A DNA stretch of 64,000 bases, taken from positions 1 to 64,000 of IMG/VR virus record IMGVR_UViG_3300021256_000063; one strand, 5' to 3'. Below are positions 4,267-56,082 of this stretch, piece after piece. Both the position numbers and the translations under genes were made by a program. A model generated the notes under the pieces. That model had not been told where the DNA came from and did not search any database. It worked only from the letters and a program-made list of their open reading frames with translations. The stretch's first letter is position 1; each line of letters opens with the position of its first letter. This DNA comes from a virus. Lineage: Duplodnaviria > Heunggongvirae > Uroviricota > Caudoviricetes.

Positions 4267-5844
4267 TTACCATTTATCAATTCCAGCAAGGACATTAATT
4301 TCTTTTTGCACTACATCATACCAAGTTCCAAGAGTTTTACGTCTTTGTTCGCCAGAACCATACTTATGATCAATAGCTTTATCACCAGTATATAAGCCCT
4401 TAGCAACCTTATATACCCAATTGACTTTATTCTGTACTGCAACTGCGTCATATCCTGCTTTAGTTAATTTAGTAAAACGCTCCGATCCATCAACAGCACC
4501 ATTACCATATTTACCACGATATACGTCTGCAATGATTTCAGGCATTACTTCTTTCGTATTCTTCACAATAGCCTTATTAACTACAGGTTTAATATTCTTT
4601 TCTACGATTTTTTCAGAAACAACCTGAGATTTAGAACCAGTCTTTTCAACCTCATATTCAATCTCAAAAGCTACCTCATCATTCACACATTCAAGAATAC
4701 CATTCCAAGGATAAGAGTAATACATCTTCAAATGACTTTCGCCACGTCCGTATTGCTCATCATAATTACCTACCTGTTTCTGATCACCGACTTTGCCACC
4801 ATTTGCTGTACCCTTCTCATTAATGCTGAATTCCATTAACACATCGGGCTCAGCCGACAAACACATAGCTGTATGACATTTCTCATTAAGATAAACATCA
4901 CCCATTTGAGCAATAAAGGACATAGGACGCCATTTAAAATTTCCAGTACCTGTCATACACTGACGCATATTGCCAGTATAAGTAGCACCACCGCAACTAA
5001 TGCCAGCGGCTTCAAATGCAGATATAACAGCAGAAGAGCAATCTCTATCTCCAGATTTGATAGTATATTTATGACCATAGATATCTATAGTCTCAGTACC
5101 TGTGCCAAATCTTTTATCCATATCCTGTGTATAACCGTGATCTTTATGAGTACACAAATGTCTCATAATTAAAGCAGCCACTTCTTTCTTATACACACGA
5201 TAAATTTTCTTTTCCTTAACAGGCTGAGTATTTGATGTGTCTTTCTTCCTATTATTAAACGGGACATACCATATAGATTCATCTACATTTCCAGAAATGC
5301 CGGGAATATGTGCCCTTGAGGTAAACTGCCAACCATCCATAGGAAACGATGGTTTATATTTAGCTTCTTGCTTGCCAGAATTTGTGCCATAAGCAGGAAT
5401 CCATCTACGACATTCAAATCCTTTTAACGGATCACGCCAAAAAGCCTGTCCTGCATAAACTCCAGAATCATTACCAAATTCTTTAAGCCATGCAGTAGTT
5501 GCCTTTTTGTTTAAATGTCTTAAATTCCATTCTTCTAAATCGAGCCAATGTGATACAACATTCTTTCCTTCTGTCAATCGTTTTTCATGAGCAATTTCAC
5601 TCTTGATTTGATTCTCATTACCAGCATAACTATAAAGGTATGTTCCATAGGGAATGCCATATTTCTCACATTGTTCCACATTATATTTATAATATTTATC
5701 ATCTTGAGATTTAATATCATCTCCATATCCAGTACGAAGAATAGCACCGTCAATATAATCTTTAGCACGCTTCCAGTCAATCTTACCTTGATGCTCAGAT
5801 GCATCAATAATTCTTTCGCTCATAAGCATCCCCTTTCTATACAA
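4267..5844 (-). CDS. Endolysin: N-terminal GH25 muramidase plus a central Cys-peptidase-like (NlpC/P60 or CHAP-like) region and a C-terminal putative cell-wall-binding region
   Basis: The N-terminus IIDASEHQGKIDW...AILRTGYG matches the GH25 lysozyme signature. The mid region has DCSSAVISAFEAAGI and downstream His residues. 525 aa. Confidence 0.85.
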   Translation of the reverse strand: MYRKGMLMSERIIDASEHQGKIDWKRAKDYIDGAILRTGYGDDIKSQDDKYYKYNVEQCEKYGIPYGTYLYSYAGNENQIKSEIAHEKRLTEGKNVVSHWLDLEEWNLRHLNKKATTAWLKEFGNDSGVYAGQAFWRDPLKGFECRRWIPAYGTNSGKQEAKYKPSFPMDGWQFTSRAHIPGISGNVDESIWYVPFNNRKKDTSNTQPVKEKKIYRVYKKEVAALIMRHLCTHKDHGYTQDMDKRFGTGTETIDIYGHKYTIKSGDRDCSSAVISAFEAAGISCGGATYTGNMRQCMTGTGNFKWRPMSFIAQMGDVYLNEKCHTAMCLSAEPDVLMEFSINEKGTANGGKVGDQKQVGNYDEQYGRGESHLKMYYSYPWNGILECVNDEVAFEIEYEVEKTGSKSQVVSEKIVEKNIKPVVNKAIVKNTKEVMPEIIADVYRGKYGNGAVDGSERFTKLTKAGYDAVAVQNKVNWVYKVAKGLYTGDKAIDHKYGSGEQRRKTLGTWYDVVQKEINVLAGIDKW

Positions 5845-9063: not shown

Positions 9064-10281
9064 TTACAACATTTTAAGTTTGTTAAGTTGCGTTTGTAGA
9101 ACAAGCGTAAACAGATAAATTTCATCTTCAGTAACGTTCCTGTCCATACTAATACGAATAGTGCTATTAATCTCTTTATCTGTTAACCCAATTTCCTGCA
9201 ATACCTTACTAGGTTCTTTCACTCCTGCATGGCAAGCACTTCCAGCAGATACTTGACAACCTTCAAAAATATCCAGATTGGTTATTAACTGCTCATTATC
9301 AATTCCATTAAAAGTAACATTGACAATATTCAACAATCCGGTATAAGGGCTATTAATCTTTACGTCATATTTTGTCATTAGGAAATCCAACAAAAGACTT
9401 CTACACCTTTTCAGATTCCTATTATCTTTATCCCTATTTTCGTATGCTTGATCCATAGCCCGACCCATCATAATAATAGAGGGCGCATCTTCAGTGCCTG
9501 ACCGCATTCCTTTTTCCTGACCACCACCATGCAGAAGAGGATTAATTTCAATACCATTTCGCACATACAAGAAACCGACCCCATGAGGCGCACCAAACTT
9601 ATGACCAGACACCGACATCATATCAATACCCATATCTTGTACATCAATCTTCATATGCGTAAAAGCTTGAACTGCATCTACATGTAACACTCCATCATAC
9701 TTGTGTACAATTTTACTAATTGCCTTAATATCATTAATTGATCCAAGTTCATTATTTGCCATCATAATTGATACAAAAATTGGATATTGTTTGACATTTG
9801 GCGTATAACGAATACGCTCCTCTAATGATTCTAAATCAACCATACCGCTATCATGACATTTCACTATATTCACACTATTGGCAATCCCCATTTCATAAAG
9901 CCATACAGCGGGATTAATAACAGAAGGATGCTCAAGACTTGAGACAAAAATTGATGGTGTTAAACGATAATAATCAAACATCTTAGAAGACCCACGAGGA
10001 GCATTCCAATGATGATACTTCTCACAACACCACCCCTTAATAGCAAGATTATTAGCTTCTGTGCCACCAGATGTAAAGATAATCTTATCACCTTCTTGAC
10101 CATTAATACACTTCAAAATATCCTGTCGTACATCCTCAATAGCCTGTCGTGTCTTCATCGACCCCTGAGAGATAGAAGAGGGATTCCACCAGTATTCCTT
10201 ACACAAGGAACCATACTCCTGTATCATTTTTTCATCAGGCTGCATCGTAGCAGCATTATCAAAATAAAGTGACGCTGACAT
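9064..10281 (-). CDS. cysteine desulfurase (NifS/IscS-like class V PLP enzyme)
   Basis: DNAAT..., SGGTEANN, SGHKFGAPHGVGFLYV and the active-site loop SAGSACHAG (compare IscS SSGSACTS). Confidence 0.8.
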   Translation of the reverse strand: MSASLYFDNAATMQPDEKMIQEYGSLCKEYWWNPSSISQGSMKTRQAIEDVRQDILKCINGQEGDKIIFTSGGTEANNLAIKGWCCEKYHHWNAPRGSSKMFDYYRLTPSIFVSSLEHPSVINPAVWLYEMGIANSVNIVKCHDSGMVDLESLEERIRYTPNVKQYPIFVSIMMANNELGSINDIKAISKIVHKYDGVLHVDAVQAFTHMKIDVQDMGIDMMSVSGHKFGAPHGVGFLYVRNGIEINPLLHGGGQEKGMRSGTEDAPSIIMMGRAMDQAYENRDKDNRNLKRCRSLLLDFLMTKYDVKINSPYTGLLNIVNVTFNGIDNEQLITNLDIFEGCQVSAGSACHAGVKEPSKVLQEIGLTDKEINSTIRISMDRNVTEDEIYLFTLVLQTQLNKLKML

Positions 10282-11680: not shown

Positions 11681-12592
11681 TCAACTGTTCATTTCACTAA
11701 CCTCTTTTTGAATCATCTGAAACATCTCGTCAACTGTTAATTCTCCAATAGGATAATGAATTTCAGAAAGACTACTTCTTGCAAATGTTCCGCTTACCAA
11801 ATCAATATAAAAAGTAACCGTTCCGTCTTCACCTGCATAATACAGTTCCCACTCTTCATCTGTAAGCTTATCTCTCATATGAAGCTGTTCAAGCGCCAAA
11901 TTATCAAAGGACACGACTTCAAATTTGTCAGCAAGTTCTACAATCCCAGACTCAAGCCATGCAATATTATCCAGAATCATTTGGTTATTATCCTTATAAT
12001 AAGGAAGACCACGACCTTTCTGCTTATATCCCAGAATAAGAATCTTCAAATCATGATCACCCAGAGCATCAATATCCTCAGGATTAATAACCCCAGCAAT
12101 TACATGGATGATAGCATTTGGAAATTCTTTGACGGCTTCAATGAATCCTTCCTGTGTGGGATCAACTAATGAAATCCCAATTCCTTTAATCAGTCCCATC
12201 TTCATAAGAAAACGCACAAACTGCCGACCGTAATCGCTCATAAAATGCTTCTGATTAATGGTGGCATTCACAAACACATTCTGTGCTTTCATGGTATACA
12301 GGAATTCCATCAAATCAGGTGGGGTAGGAAACTGAAGATTGATAGCAATCTCCGTATAAGGATGCATGGTATGCAAGAATCTCCAACTGGTCAAATCACC
12401 ATGCTTACCAGTAGGAGAGCAACCTGCATAACAAAACTCACACCCATTATCACAGCATTGTGAGATTTGTACATCACACGATTCCGCAAACTGGAAGTGA
12501 AAATCATCATCTTCTGTTACATGAATCTTTGTTCCATCATCGTAAATGGTAGTAATTGTATTACCATTCTGATATTGTGCTAACTCTTTCAT
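11681..12592 (-). CDS. radical SAM enzyme
   Basis: CDNGCEFCY (CxxxCxxC-aromatic) near the N-terminus; 303 aa; no SPASM-type extra Cys clusters. Confidence 0.75.
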   Translation of the reverse strand: MKELAQYQNGNTITTIYDDGTKIHVTEDDDFHFQFAESCDVQISQCCDNGCEFCYAGCSPTGKHGDLTSWRFLHTMHPYTEIAINLQFPTPPDLMEFLYTMKAQNVFVNATINQKHFMSDYGRQFVRFLMKMGLIKGIGISLVDPTQEGFIEAVKEFPNAIIHVIAGVINPEDIDALGDHDLKILILGYKQKGRGLPYYKDNNQMILDNIAWLESGIVELADKFEVVSFDNLALEQLHMRDKLTDEEWELYYAGEDGTVTFYIDLVSGTFARSSLSEIHYPIGELTVDEMFQMIQKEVSEMNS

Positions 12593-13626
12593 TTTTTATA
12601 CTCCTTAACCACTGCCCAGTTTGCCTCGGCAAGAAACTTATTAATCCTATCATAATCAGGATTTGCGGGAAGACTTGTATGTTCTTTCCAATATTGTAAC
12701 TTATTTTCTAAATCATCTACAATATCATAGAATTCTGCGACCGGATGATCTTCATCATCAAGATACTTACCATTCCTAATATCCATAAGAAAGTCATGCT
12801 CTTTCTCACGATAAGTAATAATCTCGCCTTTTTCAAGAATATCAAAACACATCAGATAAAGCCGAACCAGATGCATCATGTGCTTACCTAGCTTACCACG
12901 TTCAATTGCTTTACGATTCCTAGCCCCGATTTTTGCATACTCTTTAACAATCGCAAGCATCTCTGACCACATGGACTTATAATCACGAAGCGGATAGTGC
13001 TTCAAATTCACATCCATAAAAATCTCTGTGTCATAATCAGGATTTACTGCTTCATCAATATATAGCTTAATTGCGTCTTCTGGATGTTCAAAAAACTTTG
13101 CGGGGAATGTATATTTAGCATTTTCAATGCTGCGCAAAATAAACTCCTCACGCTTAGATTGCTCCATAGTTCTAGCAGCCCGATTCTCTAAACGTCTAAG
13201 CTGGCTTCCCGCATAACCTCCAAATGAATGGATGGCACGCTTAGAAAGAAACATATCTCTATTATCAATGAGCGCCTGACCGATATCTGTTACATAGAAA
13301 TACTGCCAAGGCTCAAGGCCAAGAATCTCAATTGTATTAGGATTACAATTAGAAAGAAGGTTCACAATCTTTTCAAGAGAATAAATAGTTGTATCAGTTT
13401 CCTCGTTAACCACCTGCTCAAATCCTTTACGGGTCAAAATGTCCTGAGCATTATGAGTAGCTACACCACGAATATCAATATCACTGTCTTCATTGTTAGT
13501 ACCATAGGCATAACTACCACCAAGTCCTAAAAGAACAATATTTCCCACAAGAGGCTCTTTGCCAAGAAAACTATAACGTTCATCAAAAGCCAACATATTA
13601 CCAATATCATCTCTGGTTTTAATCAT
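12589..13626 (-). CDS. Pol-beta superfamily nucleotidyltransferase (KNTase/LinB-like or CD-NTase-like) with a helical C-terminal domain
   Basis: GLGGSYAYGTNNEDSDIDIRGV fits the GS-x9-DxD pattern; 345 aa. Confidence 0.6.
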   Translation of the reverse strand: MIKTRDDIGNMLAFDERYSFLGKEPLVGNIVLLGLGGSYAYGTNNEDSDIDIRGVATHNAQDILTRKGFEQVVNEETDTTIYSLEKIVNLLSNCNPNTIEILGLEPWQYFYVTDIGQALIDNRDMFLSKRAIHSFGGYAGSQLRRLENRAARTMEQSKREEFILRSIENAKYTFPAKFFEHPEDAIKLYIDEAVNPDYDTEIFMDVNLKHYPLRDYKSMWSEMLAIVKEYAKIGARNRKAIERGKLGKHMMHLVRLYLMCFDILEKGEIITYREKEHDFLMDIRNGKYLDDEDHPVAEFYDIVDDLENKLQYWKEHTSLPANPDYDRINKFLAEANWAVVKEYKK

Positions 13627-18389: not shown

Positions 18390-19481
18390 TTAACTTGCAT
18401 TTGCCCATTGCCATCCAAAACCACCGCATTTTCTCCTTATACCATCACATACCTTCCTAATATTTCTTTGTGCGGCTTCAGCACTTTGTCCGGTTTCTTC
18501 TGCTACATTGCGCCCAGCATCTGCTATAGAATTAAATGTGCAAATATAACTACCGTTTATATCATATTTATTAACAGGACGCAACATACCAGAATAGTCA
18601 TCTTTTGATAACGTTGGTGGTTTTTTATCTTTAGTCCACAGAAAGCCACAAGCACTTTGAACTTCACCTCTTAAACATTGATATATACGATGTCTTGCGC
18701 CTGTATCATTAGTTTCTGTACCTAAATACAGTCTATGCACGGCTTCTCTAACATCATCATAAACTCCAATTAATTGTTTGGTATGTACATCCCAACAATA
18801 CACAATTCCATCATATGGCATCATTTGTTTAATACTGGCCTTATACTTTTTTCGTATTATATTATTTATCCCTTTTATTTCTGATTCAGGGATATCATTT
18901 CCATGTGTATCTTTATGATACCGAAATATATATTTACTAGCTCTTAATTGCCGACCTTTAACTACTTTTAATATATTAGTTTTTTTAACGCCAGTTATAT
19001 CTTGTGCTTCATTATATGTCATTGCCGTACCAAGGTATTTACCATTTAAATCAAAGTAATCTATTGGAGTTCTTTTAGCTAAATTATGTTTATTATTTCT
19101 TAATTTTTCTTTATGATCTTCTGATAGAGGAACACCAACATGTGAATAACCACCATCATCTCGATTATATCCATAAGAAGGATGTTGCCATCTGTTTAAA
19201 TTAGTTTTATATTTTTTAATATAATAGCGTTCTCGTTTACAGGCTTGTTCAAAAGAAAGTTTTTCTTCCAAAATAATATGTTTAAAATTATCCCAACCAT
19301 ATTTTTTTATTGCCCTATAAAATACAGTTTGAGTATGATATCCCTCTCCATTTGCCCATCTAACTTCAGGCTTTAATGACGTTATACCAATATACCTCTT
19401 ATCATTGGGGGCTACATGCATATAAACACAATACAACACATCCAAATAATTTTTCCATGTCTTTTTGGTATCTTCTAACAT
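18390..19481 (-). CDS. GIY-YIG homing endonuclease with NUMOD-like repeats
   Basis: VYMHVAPNDKRYIGITS...RWANG matches the GIY-YIG module. SEDHKEKLRNNKHN is NUMOD3-like. Confidence 0.75.
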   Translation of the reverse strand: MLEDTKKTWKNYLDVLYCVYMHVAPNDKRYIGITSLKPEVRWANGEGYHTQTVFYRAIKKYGWDNFKHIILEEKLSFEQACKRERYYIKKYKTNLNRWQHPSYGYNRDDGGYSHVGVPLSEDHKEKLRNNKHNLAKRTPIDYFDLNGKYLGTAMTYNEAQDITGVKKTNILKVVKGRQLRASKYIFRYHKDTHGNDIPESEIKGINNIIRKKYKASIKQMMPYDGIVYCWDVHTKQLIGVYDDVREAVHRLYLGTETNDTGARHRIYQCLRGEVQSACGFLWTKDKKPPTLSKDDYSGMLRPVNKYDINGSYICTFNSIADAGRNVAEETGQSAEAAQRNIRKVCDGIRRKCGGFGWQWANAS

Positions 19482-20707: not shown

Positions 20708-20933
20708 TCTCCATAATCTTAGCAGCTACATTAAGTCTTAGTCCCGCAAAGGGTGGAAGAGTACTACCCGAACTGTTCTGTGCAAAAGTCATAGGATTTG
20801 CACGCCATCTTTTAATCATCTCTTCTTTACCCAACTCAATACGGTACTGTTTATTAAATAGCTTCTTAAAAAAATACTTAATCTTATTAATCAATCTCTT
20901 CCTATATACTTCTATTTTCATTTTTTCCACCAT
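20676..20933 (-). CDS. hypothetical protein
   Basis: 85 aa ORF. Confidence 0.35.
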   Translation of the reverse strand: MVEKMKIEVYRKRLINKIKYFFKKLFNKQYRIELGKEEMIKRWRANPMTFAQNSSGSTLPPFAGLRLNVAAKIMEIGDWRSKYGR

Positions 20934-21415
20934 TTTTTATAATATTCCAATGTCAAAAACATTATCAATGTATCTATACTTACAAATTTCTTATTAAGTT
21001 TGTTCTCAATCCAAGGATGAAGCGGTTCAACCAAATCCTGCTTTTCAAAAAATCCAATAATTTCTTTCCCTAGCAACCATGCCAACATAATTTCCTGACA
21101 TGTACCTACAGATGTTTTTGCTTTGTTTAAATTCACCACAAAATAATCGCAATTAATAATTCCACAAATATCATATTCATGAGCCAACTGCTGAACTTCA
21201 TCACTTTCGTCCTCAGCATTAAAAACAGTTGGATCAAAGAATTGATAATGACCCATAAAATGTTTCTCTAGAACTTCTCGCCATTCTGTCTGTTCTTTTT
21301 GCGATAATCCTGTCATAGCACCAGACAAAAAAATAGTAGGGCAATTTGTTTCTACCTTATATTTTTGAACCAAATCTTCTAATCTATCATTCCTCATTCG
21401 CTTCCTCTTTCTCAA
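20918..21415 (-). CDS. nucleoside 2-deoxyribosyltransferase-like (NDT/Rcl-like) protein
   Basis: PTIFLSGAMTG resembles the YLAG(P) motif of the NDT/Rcl fold; 165 aa. Confidence 0.5.
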   Translation of the reverse strand: MRKRKRMRNDRLEDLVQKYKVETNCPTIFLSGAMTGLSQKEQTEWREVLEKHFMGHYQFFDPTVFNAEDESDEVQQLAHEYDICGIINCDYFVVNLNKAKTSVGTCQEIMLAWLLGKEIIGFFEKQDLVEPLHPWIENKLNKKFVSIDTLIMFLTLEYYKKWWKK

Positions 21416-33499: not shown

Positions 33500-33505
33500 T
33501 GTCAA
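33500..33505 (-). promoter_or_regulatory. candidate -35 box (TTGACA on the minus strand) upstream of the family A array
   Basis: The reverse complement reads TTGACAGTGGGCGC...; the -10 is unclear. Confidence 0.25.
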
Positions 33506-34467
33506 GTATTTTTAATATAAGTATCTGCACACAGGTTTATAAGCGGCGACTTAATTGGCTTACTCGTTGCCAGTGCCCAGCTATTAGCCCATGCCACCAT
33601 CATTTGGTTCAATGATACCCCGGCCTCTTCAAGCTTGCGGGTATCCCGCTCAATCTGCCGCTCCATTCCCTCTTTTGTAAATACTATTTTGATGCAGTCA
33701 AATATTTGAAGGTCTGGGTCTGCCGACAGATGATGCAGCCGATAAAGCTGTGCCGCACATTCTTTATAGAAGCGGTCGTATAGATCAGACCTAAATACCA
33801 ATTGTCCTAAATTATCTAATCCCAGTCGGTCAAGTTCATTTCGCCGCACCCCCATTATAATGTCGGCCTCATCATCAGTCGCAATTCGTGTAGTCCCGAA
33901 CTCTTTAATAAGAAAACAATCAGAATATAAAATAAAAGACTGCTGCTGAAGACGGACTAGCGCACGCCTGAATATATTATTTAATTGTGAATACGACTGA
34001 CGGAAGAATGTCTGTATATTATATTGAATAACATCTTCAGGCAGTTTCCCAAATGGATAAAGTGGTGCCAGATCAACTGAAGCTGGGAACTGAGTGGTCT
34101 TATGAGAAAGTGACAGGTATTCGGGGTTGACCATATTAAGCTGCTCCCACCATTTTTTACGTCCCAGAACGGCTGTATTATTTTCCTGTTGAAGAAGATA
34201 ATTTAGGAGCAATATTTTAATCAACTTATCATATTTAGTACTGCGCTCATCTGGAAGGGGATGAGCATAGATTTCAGTTATGTAGTAGAGGCAGTCCTTG
34301 GGATCATAAACAAAGGACGCAAACTGGGACAGACGTCTGTTAAATGCTGTTCTGGAGTTACCACCTAATTTTGGCTGATCAAATACTTTATAAATTTCAG
34401 TAGAAGAGTAAATAGTGTCAGGGATTAATTTTTGGACAGTTTCTTGTGTAATGTTATAATCTTTCAT
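33502..34467 (-). CDS. hypothetical protein, first gene of the leftward arm
   Basis: AAAGGAG then 11 nt then ATG (MKDYNIT); about 321 aa; no motif recognised. Confidence 0.55.
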   Translation of the reverse strand: MKDYNITQETVQKLIPDTIYSSTEIYKVFDQPKLGGNSRTAFNRRLSQFASFVYDPKDCLYYITEIYAHPLPDERSTKYDKLIKILLLNYLLQQENNTAVLGRKKWWEQLNMVNPEYLSLSHKTTQFPASVDLAPLYPFGKLPEDVIQYNIQTFFRQSYSQLNNIFRRALVRLQQQSFILYSDCFLIKEFGTTRIATDDEADIIMGVRRNELDRLGLDNLGQLVFRSDLYDRFYKECAAQLYRLHHLSADPDLQIFDCIKIVFTKEGMERQIERDTRKLEEAGVSLNQMMVAWANSWALATSKPIKSPLINLCADTYIKNT

Positions 34468-34579
34468 ATTTTTGTTACTCCTTTCGTTTGTATTGTACAA
34501 AATAAGGTGAATGGCGTGAATCGCCTTATTTTAATTAGTGTTTTTATATGGACACTCAAAAAGTCCAATGTTTTCAGTA

Positions 34580-34641
34580 GGGGGTGTACAAAATTTGAAT
34601 ATAGTAAATACTCTTACTATATTCATTTTTCGTACACCCCC
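34580..34641. promoter_or_regulatory. 62-bp near-perfect palindrome (cruciform or hairpin) in the divergent control region
   Basis: GGGGGTGTACAAAATTTGAATATAGTAA-ATACTC-TTACTATATTCATTTTTCGTACACCCCC. Confidence 0.6.
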
Positions 34642-34787
34642 CTCCGTAAAATAAGGGTTTTTTGATGGTCGGATTGTACTACAATTTTAAGGCTAATAAA
34701 TATAAGGGGAATTCCTATATGGAAGGTCTCCACTCCCACAATGATAGTATAACAGGTATGTGTCAAGGTGTCAATAAATAATTAAAT

Positions 34788-35098
34788 AGTGGGGAAAATG
34801 ATTGGAATGGGGGAAATGTGGATAAGTGGGAGGGGATCATTATTTTAATTAATGAAATATTGGGGGAAGTGATGTGGATAAAATGGGGATAAGGGGAGGG
34901 GATAACCAGTGGATTCGTATTTTATTTGTTTTTGGAATGGGATTGGGGTGGGGTAGAGTTGGTGAAGAGAATGGGAGGGAGGAATAAAGTGTAATAAAAT
35001 GGATATGTTTTGTGAGTGTGAAATATTGGGGTATTGAAATAAATACTATATATAGTATGGGTATATGGGAACGGTGGTGTATTTTGTGGTGTGTGGAT
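34788..35098 (+). repeat. ~310 bp G-rich, C-depleted tract with many GGGG runs and iterated motifs (ATGTGGATAA twice; GGAATGGG(G) repeats)
   Basis: The plus strand has almost no C. G4-capable runs are present: tggggaaaatg, ggaatggggg, gtgggagggg, aaggggagggg, gattggggtgggg. Confidence 0.6.
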
Positions 35099-35182
35099 GA
35101 AGCTCGTTCCCGGAAATCCCTGATTTTATGCGGATCTTCCGGTTTAAATATGCCCCCTTTTAACCAAAAACAAACTATAATT

Positions 35183-35219
35183 TGTCAATGTTGACATATA
35201 CCATGGATATGCTATTGTA
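35183..35219 (+). promoter_or_regulatory. rightward sigma70-like promoter (TTGACA-16/17-TATTGT) inside the palindrome TGTCAATGTTGACA
   Basis: -35 at 35191-35196; -10 near 35213-35219. A second TTGACA lies on the opposite strand at 35183-35188. Confidence 0.45.
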
Positions 35220-35789
35220 TGGTCAGGCCGAGGGAAAAGCCACCGGGTGACAATCTGGTACACACAAGCGAATCCCTTGTCCACCATATCGTAGCAATCC
35301 CTACCTGGCTTCCAGGCGCAAGGGTGCGGAACGCAAGTTGAGAGGAGTGCGTTCAATGAATTGACAAATGAATAGGATTGTAGGCGTATGCCGGGAGACC
35401 GACTTCAAGGCGTGCTGTTCCCCAATGCCAAACTGGGGATGTAACAAGCGTTTAGGGTCAGACTATCCTTGTCATGTAGAAATTGGCAAGGCGTCCCTTT
35501 TCAGCAGGACATGGCACTAAAAAAGCAACGAACCCTCCCTCCGTCCAAAGGAAAAAGTCGAAACCACAATCCGATTTCTATATAGGTGCTTGGACTGATG
35601 GATGGTAGGCGGTCTCACAGACTTTTTGCGCCATTTGGCGCCGTCTTGGTCAAACGTGAATCCGACTGTTCCGGACGCCGGGGGTGACAACTCGCCGTGT
35701 GTGCAAAACAAGCGTTCGGTCTCGGGACTTGTTCCCGGTTCCAATTTTCATTTCAGTTTAGGGCTATGCCCGGAAAGGATGGTAACATC
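35220..35789 (+). ncRNA. ~570-nt GC-rich untranslated leader or structured RNA upstream of the first rightward gene
   Basis: GC is about 55% against about 35% in the flanks. No ORF has a ribosome-binding site. Many potential stems are present. Confidence 0.35.
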
Positions 35790-36692
35790 ATGGCAAAAAA
35801 GAACAACAATCTTAATCCCAATCAGTTTATCCCGAGTTGCGCTTCCTACGAAGAGGGTCTCGACCTCGCCGCTTATGCGGCGGCTGTTAACGCCGAGTGG
35901 GACGACACTTTCTCTATCCTGCTCGAAGAGGTGCAGGAACTGGGTGGCAACATCACCCCTGTCTCGGACGATGGCGAGTTCTTCCTTGTCCTGTCCGGTC
36001 TGGACAAAAAGTCCCCTGAGTTCAAGGCGGCTCAGTATACCTGCGGCCTGCTCGAAGACCTGCACAACTCCATCTCCCGGATGTACAAGGACGCCAAGCG
36101 TTCTATCGCCACTATGACCGGGACTGTCCCATCGGATATGTTGGCGGCTCGTGGTGTGTATCGCCGCTCCCGTGACCTGTACGCCGGGGGGTCTTATCAG
36201 GTAGAGTGCAAGAAGACCGAGAAGAACCCTGAGGGTCTCAAGACCGTGACCGCCAAGCGTGGTCTGGCGACCGTCTATGCTGAGTGGTTGTCTGCTATCA
36301 GTGCGGACAAGGTGACCGAGAAACAGGCGGCTAAACTGGCGGCTCGTCTCATGGAAGTGACCAACTTTGGTCGGGTTAATAAGATCGCCGGGTCTCACAA
36401 GTTCAAAGAACTCGGTGCCCGTGGGGTCGCTCAGGACGCCGTTAACGGTCTGCTCGGATACCTGTACAATGGCGCTTATGGCTACCAGTTGGACGACAAG
36501 GGGAACCCTGTCAAAGACGCCAATGGTCAGTTCGTCCAGACCGTCTATGGCGGCAAGTGGGAACTGAAGAAGAGTTTCAACCAGACCAGATTCTGCGTCC
36601 TGACCAAAAACGCCAAGGGTGAGGAAGTCAACGAAGAGTGCGGCGGCACCCTGATTCCTGAGGGCTATGAGATTGTCCGCAAACAGGCGTAA
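35790..36692 (+). CDS. hypothetical protein (GC-rich island gene 1)
   Basis: GGAAAGGATGG then ATG at 35790; high-GC codon usage; 300 aa. Confidence 0.6.
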   Translation: MAKKNNNLNPNQFIPSCASYEEGLDLAAYAAAVNAEWDDTFSILLEEVQELGGNITPVSDDGEFFLVLSGLDKKSPEFKAAQYTCGLLEDLHNSISRMYKDAKRSIATMTGTVPSDMLAARGVYRRSRDLYAGGSYQVECKKTEKNPEGLKTVTAKRGLATVYAEWLSAISADKVTEKQAAKLAARLMEVTNFGRVNKIAGSHKFKELGARGVAQDAVNGLLGYLYNGAYGYQLDDKGNPVKDANGQFVQTVYGGKWELKKSFNQTRFCVLTKNAKGEEVNEECGGTLIPEGYEIVRKQA

Positions 36693-36811
36693 ATTAAATC
36701 CCGGATTCCGACTCCCGGATTGATACCAGATAGGGCACGCAAGGACTCTACATCCTTACGTGCCCGATTGTGGTAACAATCATCATATCACTATCACGAA
36801 AGGGGGGCACT

Positions 36812-37081
36812 ATGTCCAAATTCATTGTCAAGTTTGAAATCCCGTCTCGCCGTACCTACGGCATTACCTGCCAGTCTGAACCGCTCCCTCAGTGGGCAAT
36901 GGCAGATTTCATCCAGTCCCTTACAGACTCCAACTATACCCTGCTGGGGGTGGAGACCGTGGAAGAATTGCCGCCTGAGGCGGTCTATGGCGATGAGGAC
37001 GAGGAAGAACTCTGTGCCGAGGACATTGTCGAAATGGACTGGGACGAGGAGCCAGAAGAAGAAATCATGGAAGAAGAGTAA
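36812..37081 (+). CDS. small acidic protein (GC-rich island)
   Basis: AAAGGGGGG site; C-terminal DEDEEELCAEDIVEMDWDEEPEEEIMEEE. Confidence 0.55.
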   Translation: MSKFIVKFEIPSRRTYGITCQSEPLPQWAMADFIQSLTDSNYTLLGVETVEELPPEAVYGDEDEEELCAEDIVEMDWDEEPEEEIMEEE

Positions 37082-37195
37082 GGGGGATCTATAACCATGG
37101 CAACAGGCACAATTTATCTCAGTGACATTCTGGATTCGTACTCCGAGTATGCCCAATACGGGGGCTACGAGGACGCCGAGGAATGAAATACCACC

Positions 37196-37278
37196 ACCAC
37201 GAGGGGCGCAGTATAGAGCATAGGGCACACGCTCATTCCCTGTACTGCGATTCACGGGTTCGACTCCCGTGACGTGGT
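37196..37278 (+). ncRNA. T-arm and acceptor-like tRNA-fragment-like element
   Basis: ACGGG-TTCGACT-CCCGT T-arm followed by GACGTGG. The 5' partner CCACGAG pairs at 5 of 7 positions. The interior folds as one long hairpin, not a cloverleaf. Confidence 0.3.
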
Positions 37279-37375
37279 CTCTGTCCCGACTGGGACTATC
37301 AGCAACAAGCACGCAATCACTCCGACTGCGTGCTATTTTTATGCCCGATAATTTTCGGGGGAAAGGGGTAACACT

Positions 37376-38164
37376 ATGGCTATGAATCCTGTTTTGGCGC
37401 TCATTAACTGCGATTCCGAGGACAAATTCGTCCGTGATATCGCTGAGGCATATTTCCAGAACCCTATCCATGTCCGCGATCTGTTGACAGAGGACTGCAT
37501 CGAGGCGTGTCTGGATGACTATATGCGCAATCAGGACGTGATTGCAGACATCCGTGACCAGCAGTCCGATTGCAACAACGAGGCCAAGCTGTCCGCAAAA
37601 CAGCGCCGTGCAAGACGCCGTGTGCAGAACCATGCACACAAGCAGTCTGACCGTGCCCACGGGAAAAAGCGTCCGATGTCCCGAAAGGACGCAGTCCGTG
37701 CGAACGATGACCAGGCACAGATGTCCCGTCCCATCGGGATGTGGTCTCTGTATCCAAATGGAGCGTGTCACTTCAGACCGTTCCAGCGGTCAAACAGGCA
37801 CAATAACCATCTGTCTTATGGACAGGAAGTGTTGAACATGCTCAAAGTAGCGTCAAAGCGGGTGACCGCCGAAGACGTCAACTGGGCAAAAGCAGTTGTC
37901 CAGAATGCTGCCGAAGAGGGTCAGGAATGGGCGATCCATGACTACCTCGCAGAACAGCTGGACTACTGTCCGACTCCCGAAAAAGAGGTTGCACTCTTGA
38001 CAGTAATCCTGCTGTCATGGTGGACGGAACAGTTTGACGGATATGTCAGCTGTGGTCTGCCCGCTACAGAAGACTGCTTTAACAGTATCAGTCACAGCAA
38101 CTGGTACAAGTGGGCGGTTAAGCAGGAAGTGCCTCTTATGGTAGAGGCATGGAAACAGGCTTAA
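37376..38164 (+). CDS. hypothetical protein (GC-rich island)
   Basis: GGGGGAAAGGGG site; 262 aa. Confidence 0.55.
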   Translation: MAMNPVLALINCDSEDKFVRDIAEAYFQNPIHVRDLLTEDCIEACLDDYMRNQDVIADIRDQQSDCNNEAKLSAKQRRARRRVQNHAHKQSDRAHGKKRPMSRKDAVRANDDQAQMSRPIGMWSLYPNGACHFRPFQRSNRHNNHLSYGQEVLNMLKVASKRVTAEDVNWAKAVVQNAAEEGQEWAIHDYLAEQLDYCPTPEKEVALLTVILLSWWTEQFDGYVSCGLPATEDCFNSISHSNWYKWAVKQEVPLMVEAWKQA

Positions 38165-38175
38165 TCCCAGATCCC

Positions 38176-38220
38176 CGACACACAAACAGACCATAGAACG
38201 CAGAATCTGTTTGTGTGTCG
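38176..38220 (+). other. perfect 14-bp-stem hairpin CGACACACAAACAG...CTGTTTGTGTGTCG
   Basis: Lies directly after the stop of the gene at 37376..38164. No U-run follows. Confidence 0.5.
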
Positions 38221-53821: not shown

Positions 53822-54172
53822 ATGGGATATGAAAGTAAATTATATGTAGTTGATAAACATCGTTTTAGCGAATCGTATGTTTGGGGTGAGGTAATTGCCA
53901 CATTTGATCTTTGCTGTGTGCCGAGTTTAAGTTTCAATCGGTATCCTAATACTAATTGTTATATTATAGCAGACGATGGTAACACAGAAATAAAAGAAGA
54001 TCGCTACGGTGACCCGTTGAAGGAAGTCCCTATTCAGGATGCGATTAAAATGATTGAAAAGGCAATTGAAACGGAAGATTACTACAGGAGATATAAACCT
54101 TGTCTGGATATGTTGAAAGGATTTAATCCAGATAATTGGGGAAATCTAGTAGTATTACATTATGGTCACTAA
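53822..54172 (+). CDS. hypothetical protein
   Basis: AGGGAGATAGAT then ATG (MGYESKLYVV). Confidence 0.45.
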   Translation: MGYESKLYVVDKHRFSESYVWGEVIATFDLCCVPSLSFNRYPNTNCYIIADDGNTEIKEDRYGDPLKEVPIQDAIKMIEKAIETEDYYRRYKPCLDMLKGFNPDNWGNLVVLHYGH

Positions 54173-54190
54173 AGAAATAAAAATTAAATA

Positions 54191-54219
54191 TTGACAAAAT
54201 AATATTTTATTATTATAAT
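54191..54219 (+). promoter_or_regulatory. consensus sigma70 promoter TTGACA-17-TATAAT
   Basis: ttgacaaaataatattttattattataat is an exact match to consensus. Confidence 0.6.
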
Positions 54220-54221
54220 TA

Positions 54222-54319
54222 GTGGGTGGCGGGAGGGTTAAGATAATAATATATATTGGTATTAATATATTATAGAAATATATATTATATTATTAGTATC
54301 ACCCGCCCCGTCCACCCTC
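54222..54319 (+). other. GC-clamp imperfect inverted repeat (GTGGGTGGCGGGAGGG ... CACCCGCCCCGTCCACCCTC) enclosing a 60-nt AT-only loop
   Basis: Lies immediately downstream of the consensus promoter at 54191-54219. It could be a hairpin RNA, an attenuator or a DNA-unwinding element. Confidence 0.45.
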
Positions 54320-54487: not shown

Positions 54488-55039
54488 ATGATTGGACTGA
54501 TCATTATTCTTGTTTTTCCGTTTATATATTTCTATACACAAATGAATAATTTTAATGAAAAGACGGGGGCTATTAGAAAAGCGATTGAAGAGGGAAAAGA
54601 GACTTATATTGATACAGTCGATATGTGTGAACGTTGGACAGTAACTGGCGAAAAAGTATATCATTGCAAATGGGTATATACCAGCAAGAAAACGGAAGAT
54701 GCTATTGAAGGTGACAGTGTTCTAATGGGACTTAATACGCATAAGGTATACAGAAACTATTCAAAAGAAAAATATATAGCAGATATTCAATGGCGAATGG
54801 ATCATGGGATATGTTGGTGTTGGGAAAGACATGCGTTTAATGAAAAAACAAAAGAAGATTATCTTCTCCATTATCATATGAAAGACAAATATTTTTATCG
54901 ACTTGGCTGGGACAACGCAACTCATAATTATTGTATTACATATCATAACACTGATAAAAAAGAAATTATTTCTTATGAAAAGTATAAAGAATATGGCGGT
55001 TTTGATATAAAAGATAGAACAAGGGGGTACAGAAGATGA
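54488..55039 (+). CDS. hypothetical protein with an N-terminal TM segment
   Basis: GAAAGGAG site; 183 aa. Confidence 0.5.
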   Translation: MIGLIIILVFPFIYFYTQMNNFNEKTGAIRKAIEEGKETYIDTVDMCERWTVTGEKVYHCKWVYTSKKTEDAIEGDSVLMGLNTHKVYRNYSKEKYIADIQWRMDHGICWCWERHAFNEKTKEDYLLHYHMKDKYFYRLGWDNATHNYCITYHNTDKKEIISYEKYKEYGGFDIKDRTRGYRR

Positions 55040-56082
55040 CGGGTAAACAGTTAGATAACGAAATGTTTGATAAGAAAATTGCCGATGTCATTAGTAAGAA
55101 TCCAGATAAGCCTTATTTAGAAGGGTTTAAGAACTGGGCAAAAAGTGGTACAAAACGATCACGTAGAACCATTTACAACTATCTGTTATATGTACTTCAT
55201 TTTTTAAATTATGTACAGAAGGATATAACAGAAATTGAATTGGATGATTACACAAGCTACGCAGATGCTCAGAGTAAATTATCATCTTCCAACCAGATTG
55301 CAAAATACTCTGCAATTAAGTGTTTTGCGAAGTATTTAAAAGCATCCAGAAAAATTAAATATAACTTTATGGAAGATGCAGAGCGCCCTAAATTTATTGA
55401 GAGTCAGGAAACAAAAGAGAAAAGACAAAGAAAACACTTGACCATTAAACAGATGCATCAAATGTTCAGGAACATTGAAATTGGTGTTGGTAATGAACGG
55501 GCACTCTGGTTACAAAATGAATACCGATCCAGAGATATGGCAATTGTTATGGTGTTCTTAACAACTGGAATTCGTATTACCGCTCTTAAAAACATGAATG
55601 TTTCAGATGTGGATTTTGAAAATAGCTGCATCAGAGTTACAGATAAAGGTGATAAAGTAAATTTGCACAACATCCCAGAGGAAACAAAAACTGTATTAAG
55701 AAAATGGTTGCTTAAAAGGGAAGAAATTCTTACTAAAGCAAATAAAATGGATGAGCAAGCGCTGTTTATTTCAAATGAAAAGAGACGACTGTCTGACACA
55801 GGAATCCGTTCTGTAGTTGACAAATATTCCAGATCAATTACTGATGGAGATGAAAAAATCACGCCACATGCTCTTCGTGCTACTTTTGGGACACTTCTTT
55901 ATGACAGAACACACGATATTGAATTGGTGAGACAACAGATGAATCATGAATCTGTTGCCACAACGCAAAGATATATCCGTGGTAATGAAGAAGCCAACAG
56001 AAAAAGAACCGCAGATGTTATGGGTAGTATCATTTCTTCTGGAAAGAAGAGAGACACAGGCAGCTTATTTGGAGAGGAGTAA
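55036..56082 (+). CDS. tyrosine recombinase / phage integrase family
   Basis: TGIRITAL (Arg), HALRATFGT (HxxR) and ATTQRYI (Tyr) at the C-terminus. Confidence 0.8.
   Translation: MTGKQLDNEMFDKKIADVISKNPDKPYLEGFKNWAKSGTKRSRRTIYNYLLYVLHFLNYVQKDITEIELDDYTSYADAQSKLSSSNQIAKYSAIKCFAKYLKASRKIKYNFMEDAERPKFIESQETKEKRQRKHLTIKQMHQMFRNIEIGVGNERALWLQNEYRSRDMAIVMVFLTTGIRITALKNMNVSDVDFENSCIRVTDKGDKVNLHNIPEETKTVLRKWLLKREEILTKANKMDEQALFISNEKRRLSDTGIRSVVDKYSRSITDGDEKITPHALRATFGTLLYDRTHDIELVRQQMNHESVATTQRYIRGNEEANRKRTADVMGSIISSGKKRDTGSLFGEE

Follow-up and report, generated by a model that had tools for sequence, protein, structure and literature searches.

Between the divergent gene arms of a Caudoviricetes phage (IMG/VR virus record IMGVR_UViG_3300021256_000063) lies a tract of a few hundred nucleotides whose plus strand is rich in G and nearly free of C, and the repeats within it very probably form a cluster of binding sites for the DnaA protein of the host. 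We worked with positions 1 to 64,000 of the record—this whole 64-kb stretch is called the window—in which an earlier note had placed the tract at 34788–35098 (311 nt). More tentatively, we read the tract as a site that would recruit host DnaA and from which DnaA-dependent replication of the phage would begin. A DnaA-box region in a mobile element is of an already known kind; the unusual part is a strand-exclusive composition that has apparently been selected.

What are the repeats? The earlier note had reported recurring motifs, and two of them are indeed present twice each: ATGTGGATAA at 34816–34825 and 34872–34881, and TTGGAATGGG at 34802 and 34932. The former corresponds in reverse complement to the DnaA box TTATCCACA, which is the consensus form of the box and reads TGTGGATAA on the opposite strand (PMC8287927, PMC6070618). 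Perfect copies of TGTGGATAA occur only three times in the 64 kb, and two of these are in the tract, 56 bp apart. When one mismatch is allowed, the tract holds four boxes (starting at 34817, 34873, 34884, and 35092) that span 284 bp and all lie on the plus strand. DnaA-box clusters are usually defined by at least three boxes at a mean spacing below 100 bp (PMC7561715); the boxes at 34817, 34873, and 34884, plus that at 35092, form such a cluster. Two of them (TGTGGATAA-aa-TGGGGATAA, 34873–34892) also make up the co-oriented tandem pair of the basal unwinding system (BUS) of bacterial origins, which consists of a co-oriented box pair, a GC cluster, DnaA-trios, and an AT-rich element (PMC8287927, PMC10721633). 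A search for further co-oriented clusters, which covered the window and ~250 kb of the right arms of related phages with their helicase/primase region, found none. Three DnaA-box-like 9-mers with one mismatch in the endolysin gene (5114–5197) have mixed orientation and are probably there by chance.

How unusual is the composition of the tract? It contains 94 A, 6 C, 114 G, and 97 T, a GC skew of +0.90, whereas the remaining 311-nt segments of the window have a mean skew of −0.07 (SD 0.23, maximum 0.56; z of the tract ~4.1) and never fewer than 24 C. The extreme asymmetry described in the earlier note, which had proposed this skew calculation, is therefore unique in the window. The G+C content (~37–39%) is close to the genome average (~36%), so the tract is a case of pure strand asymmetry and not a GC island; it includes 16 runs of at least three G, 10 of them of at least four. 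Its natural limits (34776–35102) run from just past the −35 hexamer of a leftward promoter, P_L, to the end of a conserved motif, GTGTGTGGATGAAG. The remaining C-poor/G-poor stretches of the window, at 54170–54301 and 20845–20997, are simply AT-rich, not G-rich. Because C is missing on one strand and G on the other, G/C-containing inverted repeats are impossible and neither separated strand folds; as single-stranded DNA, the plus strand has a minimum free energy (MFE) of −5.9 kcal/mol over 311 nt and is essentially unstructured. Coding potential is absent from the tract, as the plus strand is full of stops and the minus strand, having no G, is without start codons. Among short regulatory motifs in the tract, CsrA-type ANGGA is depleted (z −3.5), and neither AbrB-type TGGNA nor Shine–Dalgarno-like GGAGG is enriched.

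Are the composition and the boxes conserved? We retrieved relatives carrying the neighboring gene (33502–34500; 65–99% protein identity) from IMG/VR, JGI/ENA metagenomes, and Logan assemblies; judging by the sample identifiers, most presumably come from the rumen. Thirteen of the loci reach past the right edge of the tract and form the set for tract counts. The earlier note had named absence from close relatives as grounds for dismissing the feature; instead, a C-poor tract (176–378 nt, skew +0.75 to +1.0, G+C 0.24–0.39) is found at the same place in every relative with enough flank (13/13). In 12 of the 13, the tract holds three to six boxes with at most one mismatch, as compared with 0.2–0.4 in dinucleotide shuffles of the same tract (~10-fold enrichment); none is on the minus strand, and TGTGGAT(AA) is by far the top enriched k-mer. 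Sites with up to two mismatches are two to three times more frequent than in shuffles in most relatives, and GATCAGG is enriched as well (7/13, z 8.8). An alignment of 11 relatives shows islands of conservation at the P_L hexamers, the AT-rich block upstream of P_L, box 1, and box 2, while the remainder of the tract has diverged yet stayed C-free. Box islands in otherwise diverged sequence are the pattern expected for functional DnaA boxes. The 56-bp spacing of boxes 1 and 2 holds down to 65% identity of the neighboring gene, and other lineages have three to four abutting boxes in place of this layout. Since the distance from box 1 to P_L ranges from 40 to 64 bp and the 56-bp spacing is fixed, box-to-box geometry is tighter than box-to-promoter geometry. 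The terminal box is found in every relative that reaches that point and is a perfect TGTGGATAA in locus L001. In locus L012 and the near-identical L011, P_L and boxes 1–3 have been lost and only this boundary box is kept; the tract there is 176 nt long with zero C and only 24% G, and ends in the boundary box.

The right half of the tract varies together with the type of the rightward promoter, P_R. In 10 of the 13 relatives (L001, L002, L003, L004, L007, L009, L012, L013, L016, and L021), the tracts contain 16 copies of TGTAAATT, and the motif recurs near −30 of their P_R, immediately 5′ of the −10 hexamer. The window, with a P_R of another type, lacks this motif, which might be an operator or an alternative promoter element changing together with the right half of the tract. 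Among 18 related contigs, five (L005, L008, L010, L011, and L014) end inside the tract or within ~50 nt of it, and relatives switch to unrelated sequence at 34892 or inside the tract, so these contig ends fit strain-level mosaicism, although physical DNA ends are also conceivable. Beyond these relatives, blastn and tblastn against 50,697 phage records gave no match to the region or the adjacent gene, and an exact-pattern scan of viral contigs for GTGTGGATGAAGCNCG returned 71 loci, all of them chance (upstream C fraction at least 0.15). A scan for two boxes 45–47 bp apart found other DnaA-box clusters, with a C-free tract only in a known relative. Among other IMG/VR loci, L096/L108, L100, L109, and L112 carry textbook BUS origins, (TAG)n followed by a GC cluster and two tandem TGTGGATAA boxes, and may be phage–plasmid origins or bacterial oriC fragments binned as viral.

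Where in the genome does the tract lie? The window is phage-like, with minus-strand genes up to 34500 and plus-strand genes from ~35190–35200. The tract sits between these arms, as the earlier note had stated, ~150 nt to the right of the 62-nt core of a palindrome and at the minimum of the cumulative GC skew. A scan for sigma-70-type promoters placed P_L and P_R on either side of the tract and none inside it, which makes the tract a spacer upstream of both divergent promoters—most likely a predicted nontranscribed spacer of ~415 bp between two early promoters. An AT-rich block directly upstream of P_L (34776–34790) looks like its UP element. Two segments in the tract are predicted to melt easily, and the second includes the 30 bp with the lowest stability in the region (−28.3 kcal/mol; window mean, −36.9). 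The coordinates of all these features are collected in Table 1.

Table 1. Boxes, promoters, and easily melted segments in and around the C-free tract; positions refer to the window
Feature	Position	Strand	Description
C-depleted, G-rich spacer, predicted nontranscribed	34776–35102	+	327 nt, 6 C, 116 G, skew +0.90; unique in the window; contains 34788–35098
DnaA box 1, TGTGGATAA	34817–34825	+	Exact reverse complement of TTATCCACA; island of conservation among 11 aligned relatives
DnaA box 2, TGTGGATAA, perfect	34873–34881	+	56 bp past box 1; spacing kept in 11/11 relatives sharing the layout
DnaA box 3, TGGGGATAA, one mismatch	34884–34892	+	Tandem with box 2, 2-bp gap; tandem or nearby third box in most relatives
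Terminal (boundary) DnaA box, TGTGGATGA, one mismatch	35092–35100	+	Within the boundary motif GTGTGTGGATGAAGC at the right edge of the tract
Weak box-like site, AGGGGATCA, three mismatches	34831–34839	+	Holds one of the six C, as GATC; function putative
Weak box-like site, AGGGGATAA, two mismatches	34897–34905	+	Belongs to a class of sites enriched in relatives
Leftward promoter P_L, TTGACA-17-TATACT, TG before	34746–34774	−	Sigma-70-type promoter scan, 11/12; hexamers kept in relatives
Rightward promoter P_R, TTGACA-16-TATTGT, TG before	35191–35218	+	Sigma-70-type promoter scan, 10/12
Easily melted AT-rich segment, weak candidate for an unwinding element	34836–34861; unstable over 34832–34864		Between boxes 1 and 2; 30-bp duplex instability beyond the 97th percentile for the window
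Second easily melted AT-rich segment	35028–35069		5′ (left) of the terminal box; holds the least stable 30 bp of the region

How might such a region work? If it is an origin, host DnaA-ATP would bind the strong boxes and then oligomerize along the spacer, and divergent transcription from P_L and P_R would introduce negative supercoils there. An AT-rich segment would then melt, and the DnaB-like helicase and the primase of the phage would be loaded. We suggest that the absence of G/C self-complementarity might keep the unwound strands structure-free, offering a clean single-stranded platform, and that, with no cruciforms to absorb supercoiling, the energy might stay available for melting. A 140-kb relative encodes a Sak4-like annealing protein ~7 kb to the right of the window end, and a DnaB-like helicase, a primase, and an exonuclease follow within ~17 kb after it. 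An origin is the best fit for the region because a box cluster with conserved geometry occupies a predicted nontranscribed spacer, one that divergent transcription would supercoil negatively, with AT-rich DNA inside and a skew switch, because no other co-oriented cluster was found in the window or the related loci scanned, and because the phage has a helicase and a primase but no recognizable initiator. The earlier note had likewise offered a replication origin or iteron region among its candidates. The origin part gains support from clustered, co-oriented, and conserved boxes between divergent promoters at a skew switch, although trios, iterons, and an initiator gene were not found; the iteron part stands insofar as the repeats are real and the “iterons” are DnaA boxes, whereas plasmid-type iterons of 17–22 bp in at least three copies are missing.

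Several observations weigh against an origin at this place. Phage origins are often near helicase and primase genes, and here these genes are ~35–45 kb from the tract. No initiator or helicase-loader gene was recognized near the tract, and the adjacent 332-aa protein matched no Pfam, NCBIfam, or PDB profile and gave a poor structure model (pLDDT 47.6). DnaA-trio arrays, scored as at least three NAN, preferably 3′-GAT-5′, within 16 nt 5′ of a box on the TGTGGATAA strand, were not above chance next to any box: the longest runs were three at box 1 and two at box 2, equal or longer runs occurred in 57–82% of shuffles, and A showed no period-3 signal. (The expected trio orientation was confirmed on other IMG/VR loci with textbook (TAG)n–GC–box–box origins.) Beyond the box pairs, no weak boxes were phased at 11-bp steps from the strong ones, and no helical (10–11 bp), 3-nt, or other periodicity of G or A/T was detected in the tract. 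The repeat content is also unlike that of a Rep-type origin, in that no unit of 17–22 bp has three or more copies in the tract; the longest families (20–21 nt) have only two copies at 75–81% identity, and the sole three-copy family has an 11-nt unit. Several relatives lack AT-richness in the segment that separates boxes 1 and 2, and the GC-skew switch is confounded with gene orientation. Finally, L011 and L012 remain C-free without boxes 1–3, so that the strong boxes do not account for the composition.

Is C-avoidance then a property in its own right? Among close relatives, biallelic columns of the types A/G (196), G/T (75), and A/T (89) far outnumber those of the types C/T (20), A/C (7), and C/G (8). 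If A is about as frequent as T and mutation is strand-symmetric, we estimate that ~2.5–3 A/G changes would be expected per C/T change; the ratio found is ~10, and new C alleles would thus be either purged or removed by a strongly strand-biased mutation process. C-avoidance therefore appears to be actively maintained. To our knowledge, no known origin component accounts for the exclusion of one base from a strand over hundreds of nucleotides, and the rut site is the only known class of element defined purely by such strand composition. It is conceivable, though rather unlikely, that strand-exclusive composition over 180–380 bp is itself the selected, sequence-independent property. It might act as a structure-free landing pad, on which the unwound strands would be chemically distinct and would allow strand-specific loading of DnaA and helicase, or as an insulator, a composition-coded barrier between the divergent early operons.

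If the boxes do bind DnaA, they need not mark an origin. DnaA could act as a transcription factor here, coupling P_L and P_R to the level of host DnaA-ATP so that the phage senses the growth or replication state of its host, much as at the Spo0A sites of phi29-family phages or in DnaA control of bacterial promoters. The boxes do lie between two strong promoters, with box 1 ~43 bp upstream of the P_L −35 hexamer and the boundary box kept ~90–100 bp upstream of P_R, and a host regulator that governs phage early promoters has precedent (PMC2731898). We nonetheless consider this doubtful: no box overlaps a promoter hexamer, the variable 40–64 bp between box 1 and P_L next to a fixed box spacing fits the fixed geometry of an activator poorly, and 300 nt of C-avoidance would be left unexplained. 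An improbable alternative is that the boxes are a sink or an anchor, sequestering host DnaA and blocking re-initiation or tethering incoming DNA to membrane-bound DnaA. Tethering has been proposed for the DnaA-box-rich untranslated region at the injection stop signal (iss) of phage T5, in a model that is itself untested (bioRxiv 10.1101/866236). The likeness extends to a large phage bearing tRNA and homing endonuclease genes and to an untranslated region, rich in repeats and palindromes, with paired boxes and adjoining early genes, but strong boxes number only three to six per genome and are not set in inverted repeats as in T5. The array might instead be bound by a phage protein, as iterons or operators, with the resemblance to DnaA boxes secondary or with joint action as in P1 oriR and RK2 oriV. 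Direct repeats other than boxes (TGGGGGAAATG three times, TTGGAATGGG and TGAAATATTGGGG twice each), the enrichment of TGTAAATT in 10 of the 13 relatives together with its presence near −30 of their P_R, and the change of the right tract half with P_R type would all suit such a protein. Against it, no unit of at least 17 bp reaches three copies, relatives do not keep the non-box repeats of the window, TGTAAATT is missing from the window, and no candidate binding protein was identified; we give this reading a similarly low chance.

Other explanations take the composition as their starting point. The tract could be a Rho loading zone, in which a leftward transcript—C-rich, G-free, unstructured, and untranslatable—would serve as a rut site, shielding P_L and the left arm against antisense transcription. 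A hypothetical minus-strand RNA across the tract has the composition of a rut site (37% C, 2% G, at least 80 nt unstructured), folds with an MFE of 0 to −2.7 kcal/mol per 100 nt as compared with a genome average of −19.9, and, coming from a G-free strand, lacks start codons and Shine–Dalgarno sequences; moreover, the tract is defined by composition, as rut sites are, and persists without strong boxes in L011 and L012. However, on the right of the tract there is no conserved leftward promoter but just a weak 9/12 match at 35489–35462, the tract is upstream of both mapped promoters, and the conserved boxes would go unexplained, which makes Rho loading quite improbable. Less credible still is the suggestion of the earlier note that runs of three to five G could form G-quadruplexes (G4s) in an R-loop or G4 switch, or its extension to an R-loop-primed origin such as those of ColE1, T4 (oriF), and T7 or at mitochondrial CSBII. 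The G4Hunter scoring that the note had proposed does give 1.7–2.0 in four sub-windows, there are 16 runs of at least three G, and divergent transcription would presumably supercoil the spacer negatively. Nevertheless, no motif of four runs of at least three G exists with loops of up to 7 or 12 nt, leaving two-tetrad motifs only, and the number of such runs varies from 1 to 16 per relative while C-depletion is constant; without a three-tetrad motif or a conserved run number, G4 potential is not the conserved property. As for R-loops, a scan limited to sigma-70-type promoters predicted none that reads into the tract and no rightward one upstream of it or inside it. The analysis thus removes an attractive but unsupported G4 reading. 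The least probable of all is a pac/cos packaging signal or genome terminus, which the earlier note had also raised and for which we found no support: although 5 of 18 related contigs break inside or beside the tract, 13 read straight through it, strain-level mosaicism accounts for the breaks equally well, and no terminase gene was recognized among the proteins scanned.

How does the tract compare with known origins? Like a bacterial oriC with its BUS, it has TTATCCACA-type boxes, two of them co-oriented in tandem across a 2-bp gap, a position at a strand switch, and a GGGGG cluster and AT-rich DNA on the side of the pair where trios are expected; unlike one, it has no (NAN)n trio array above chance, and its boxes all share one orientation over ~280 bp. 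We know of no described oriC that excludes C from one strand over 300 nt. DnaA-assisted origins of mobile elements, such as P1 oriR, RK2 oriV, and those of pSC101 and F, have a few high-affinity DnaA boxes, some in tandem, near AT-rich DNA, and use the host initiator. The tract resembles them in carrying mobile-element DnaA boxes, some tandem, beside AT-rich DNA but differs in that neither their 17–22-bp iterons nor an adjacent rep gene was found at the tract. We take GGGGATCATT in the tract to resemble the GATC-containing low-affinity sites of Escherichia coli. As in the oligomerization regions of E. coli oriC, strong boxes flank co-oriented weaker sites with a GGAT core, whereas the E. coli arrays place four sites at an exact 2-bp spacing (PMC6070618), a phasing not seen in the tract. 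T5 iss, also from a large phage of lytic type, is likewise a long untranslated region near early genes with repeats, a palindrome, and closely paired boxes that are kept in relatives. Its eight boxes, in pairs 3 bp apart, are set in inverted repeats within the terminal repeat (bioRxiv 10.1101/866236), unlike the boxes of the tract, which are all co-oriented in a C-free setting between divergent promoters, with the tandem pair outside inverted repeats. Rut regions, too, are defined by strand composition (C-rich, G-poor, and unstructured) over 100–300 nt and not by sequence, but no transcript is predicted across the tract in the required direction.

The flanks of the tract hold further elements. 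An imperfect long hairpin at 34556–34666, with a 62-nt core at 34580–34641 and A-run and T-run flanks, folds as single-stranded DNA with a z of −7.2 and is kept in 12 relatives, including a compensatory AU-to-GC change. It is ~80–180 nt downstream of the P_L start and might function as an attenuator or a bidirectional terminator or form the body of a P_L small RNA; Rfam searches at E up to 1 gave only chance microRNA matches on the palindrome in this region and none in 10 related loci. A second promoter-like site is on the minus strand immediately ahead of the left gene (34520–34492). Between this gene and P_L, a GTAC-centered motif (TTGTACAAAAT, palindrome ATTGTAcTACAAT) occurs at 34490–34503, 34587–34596, and 34674–34688; it is kept in relatives and resembles an operator. 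To the right, no conserved hairpin or terminator was found between the boundary box and P_R. A block of 49–55% G+C (35100–38200, against ~36% elsewhere) begins precisely where the tract ends and is replaced by unrelated GC-rich blocks in relatives, so that it may be a hotspot for accessory genes immediately behind the early promoter. P_R is followed by a 560-nt untranslated leader (35226–35790) with no Rfam match and no more structure than shuffles (z −0.17). In L003 and L019/L020, whose phages have ~36% G+C, the leader downstream of P_R is 600–800 nt long, noncoding, and very GC-rich, with repeated AACCCGGAACCGGGGGCGCG-like units (e.g., in L019 at upstream positions ~600–1300 in window orientation).

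What kind of phage carries the tract? The window encodes a GH25/CW_7 endolysin, homing endonucleases, tyrosine recombinases, a ParB-like protein, a DUF932 protein, and three tRNAs (genes at 60785, 63060, and 63750). Accessory genes in both arms (9064–10281, 12589–13626, 18390–19481, 55036–56082, and 59339–60259) jointly comprise a class-V aminotransferase, an RlaP-like RNA-repair nucleotidyltransferase, a GIY-YIG homing endonuclease, and two tyrosine recombinases. The endolysin, which combines GH25 with CW_7, points to a Gram-positive host, and the phage is most likely a large one, of ~115–160 kb, infecting such a bacterium in the rumen. For one window protein, the nearest cultured relative is a distant one, in an Enterocloster phage, and clostridial DnaA is expected to recognize TTWTNCACA (PMC7561715). 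The adjacent minus-strand gene (33502–34500) has its sole match in PHROG 36702, a family of unknown function, and a scan of genome contigs gave no match to it, so neither a prophage copy nor a host assignment is available. Viral contigs contain no relative of the first right-arm gene.

If strand-exclusive composition is indeed a selected landing pad or insulator, it would be an origin or promoter-spacer element of a kind not described before. If the tract is an origin, a large phage that encodes its own helicase and primase would still rely on DnaA, the initiator of its host, and co-oriented TGTGGATAA boxes in a C-free spacer would provide a simple origin marker for uncultured rumen phages.

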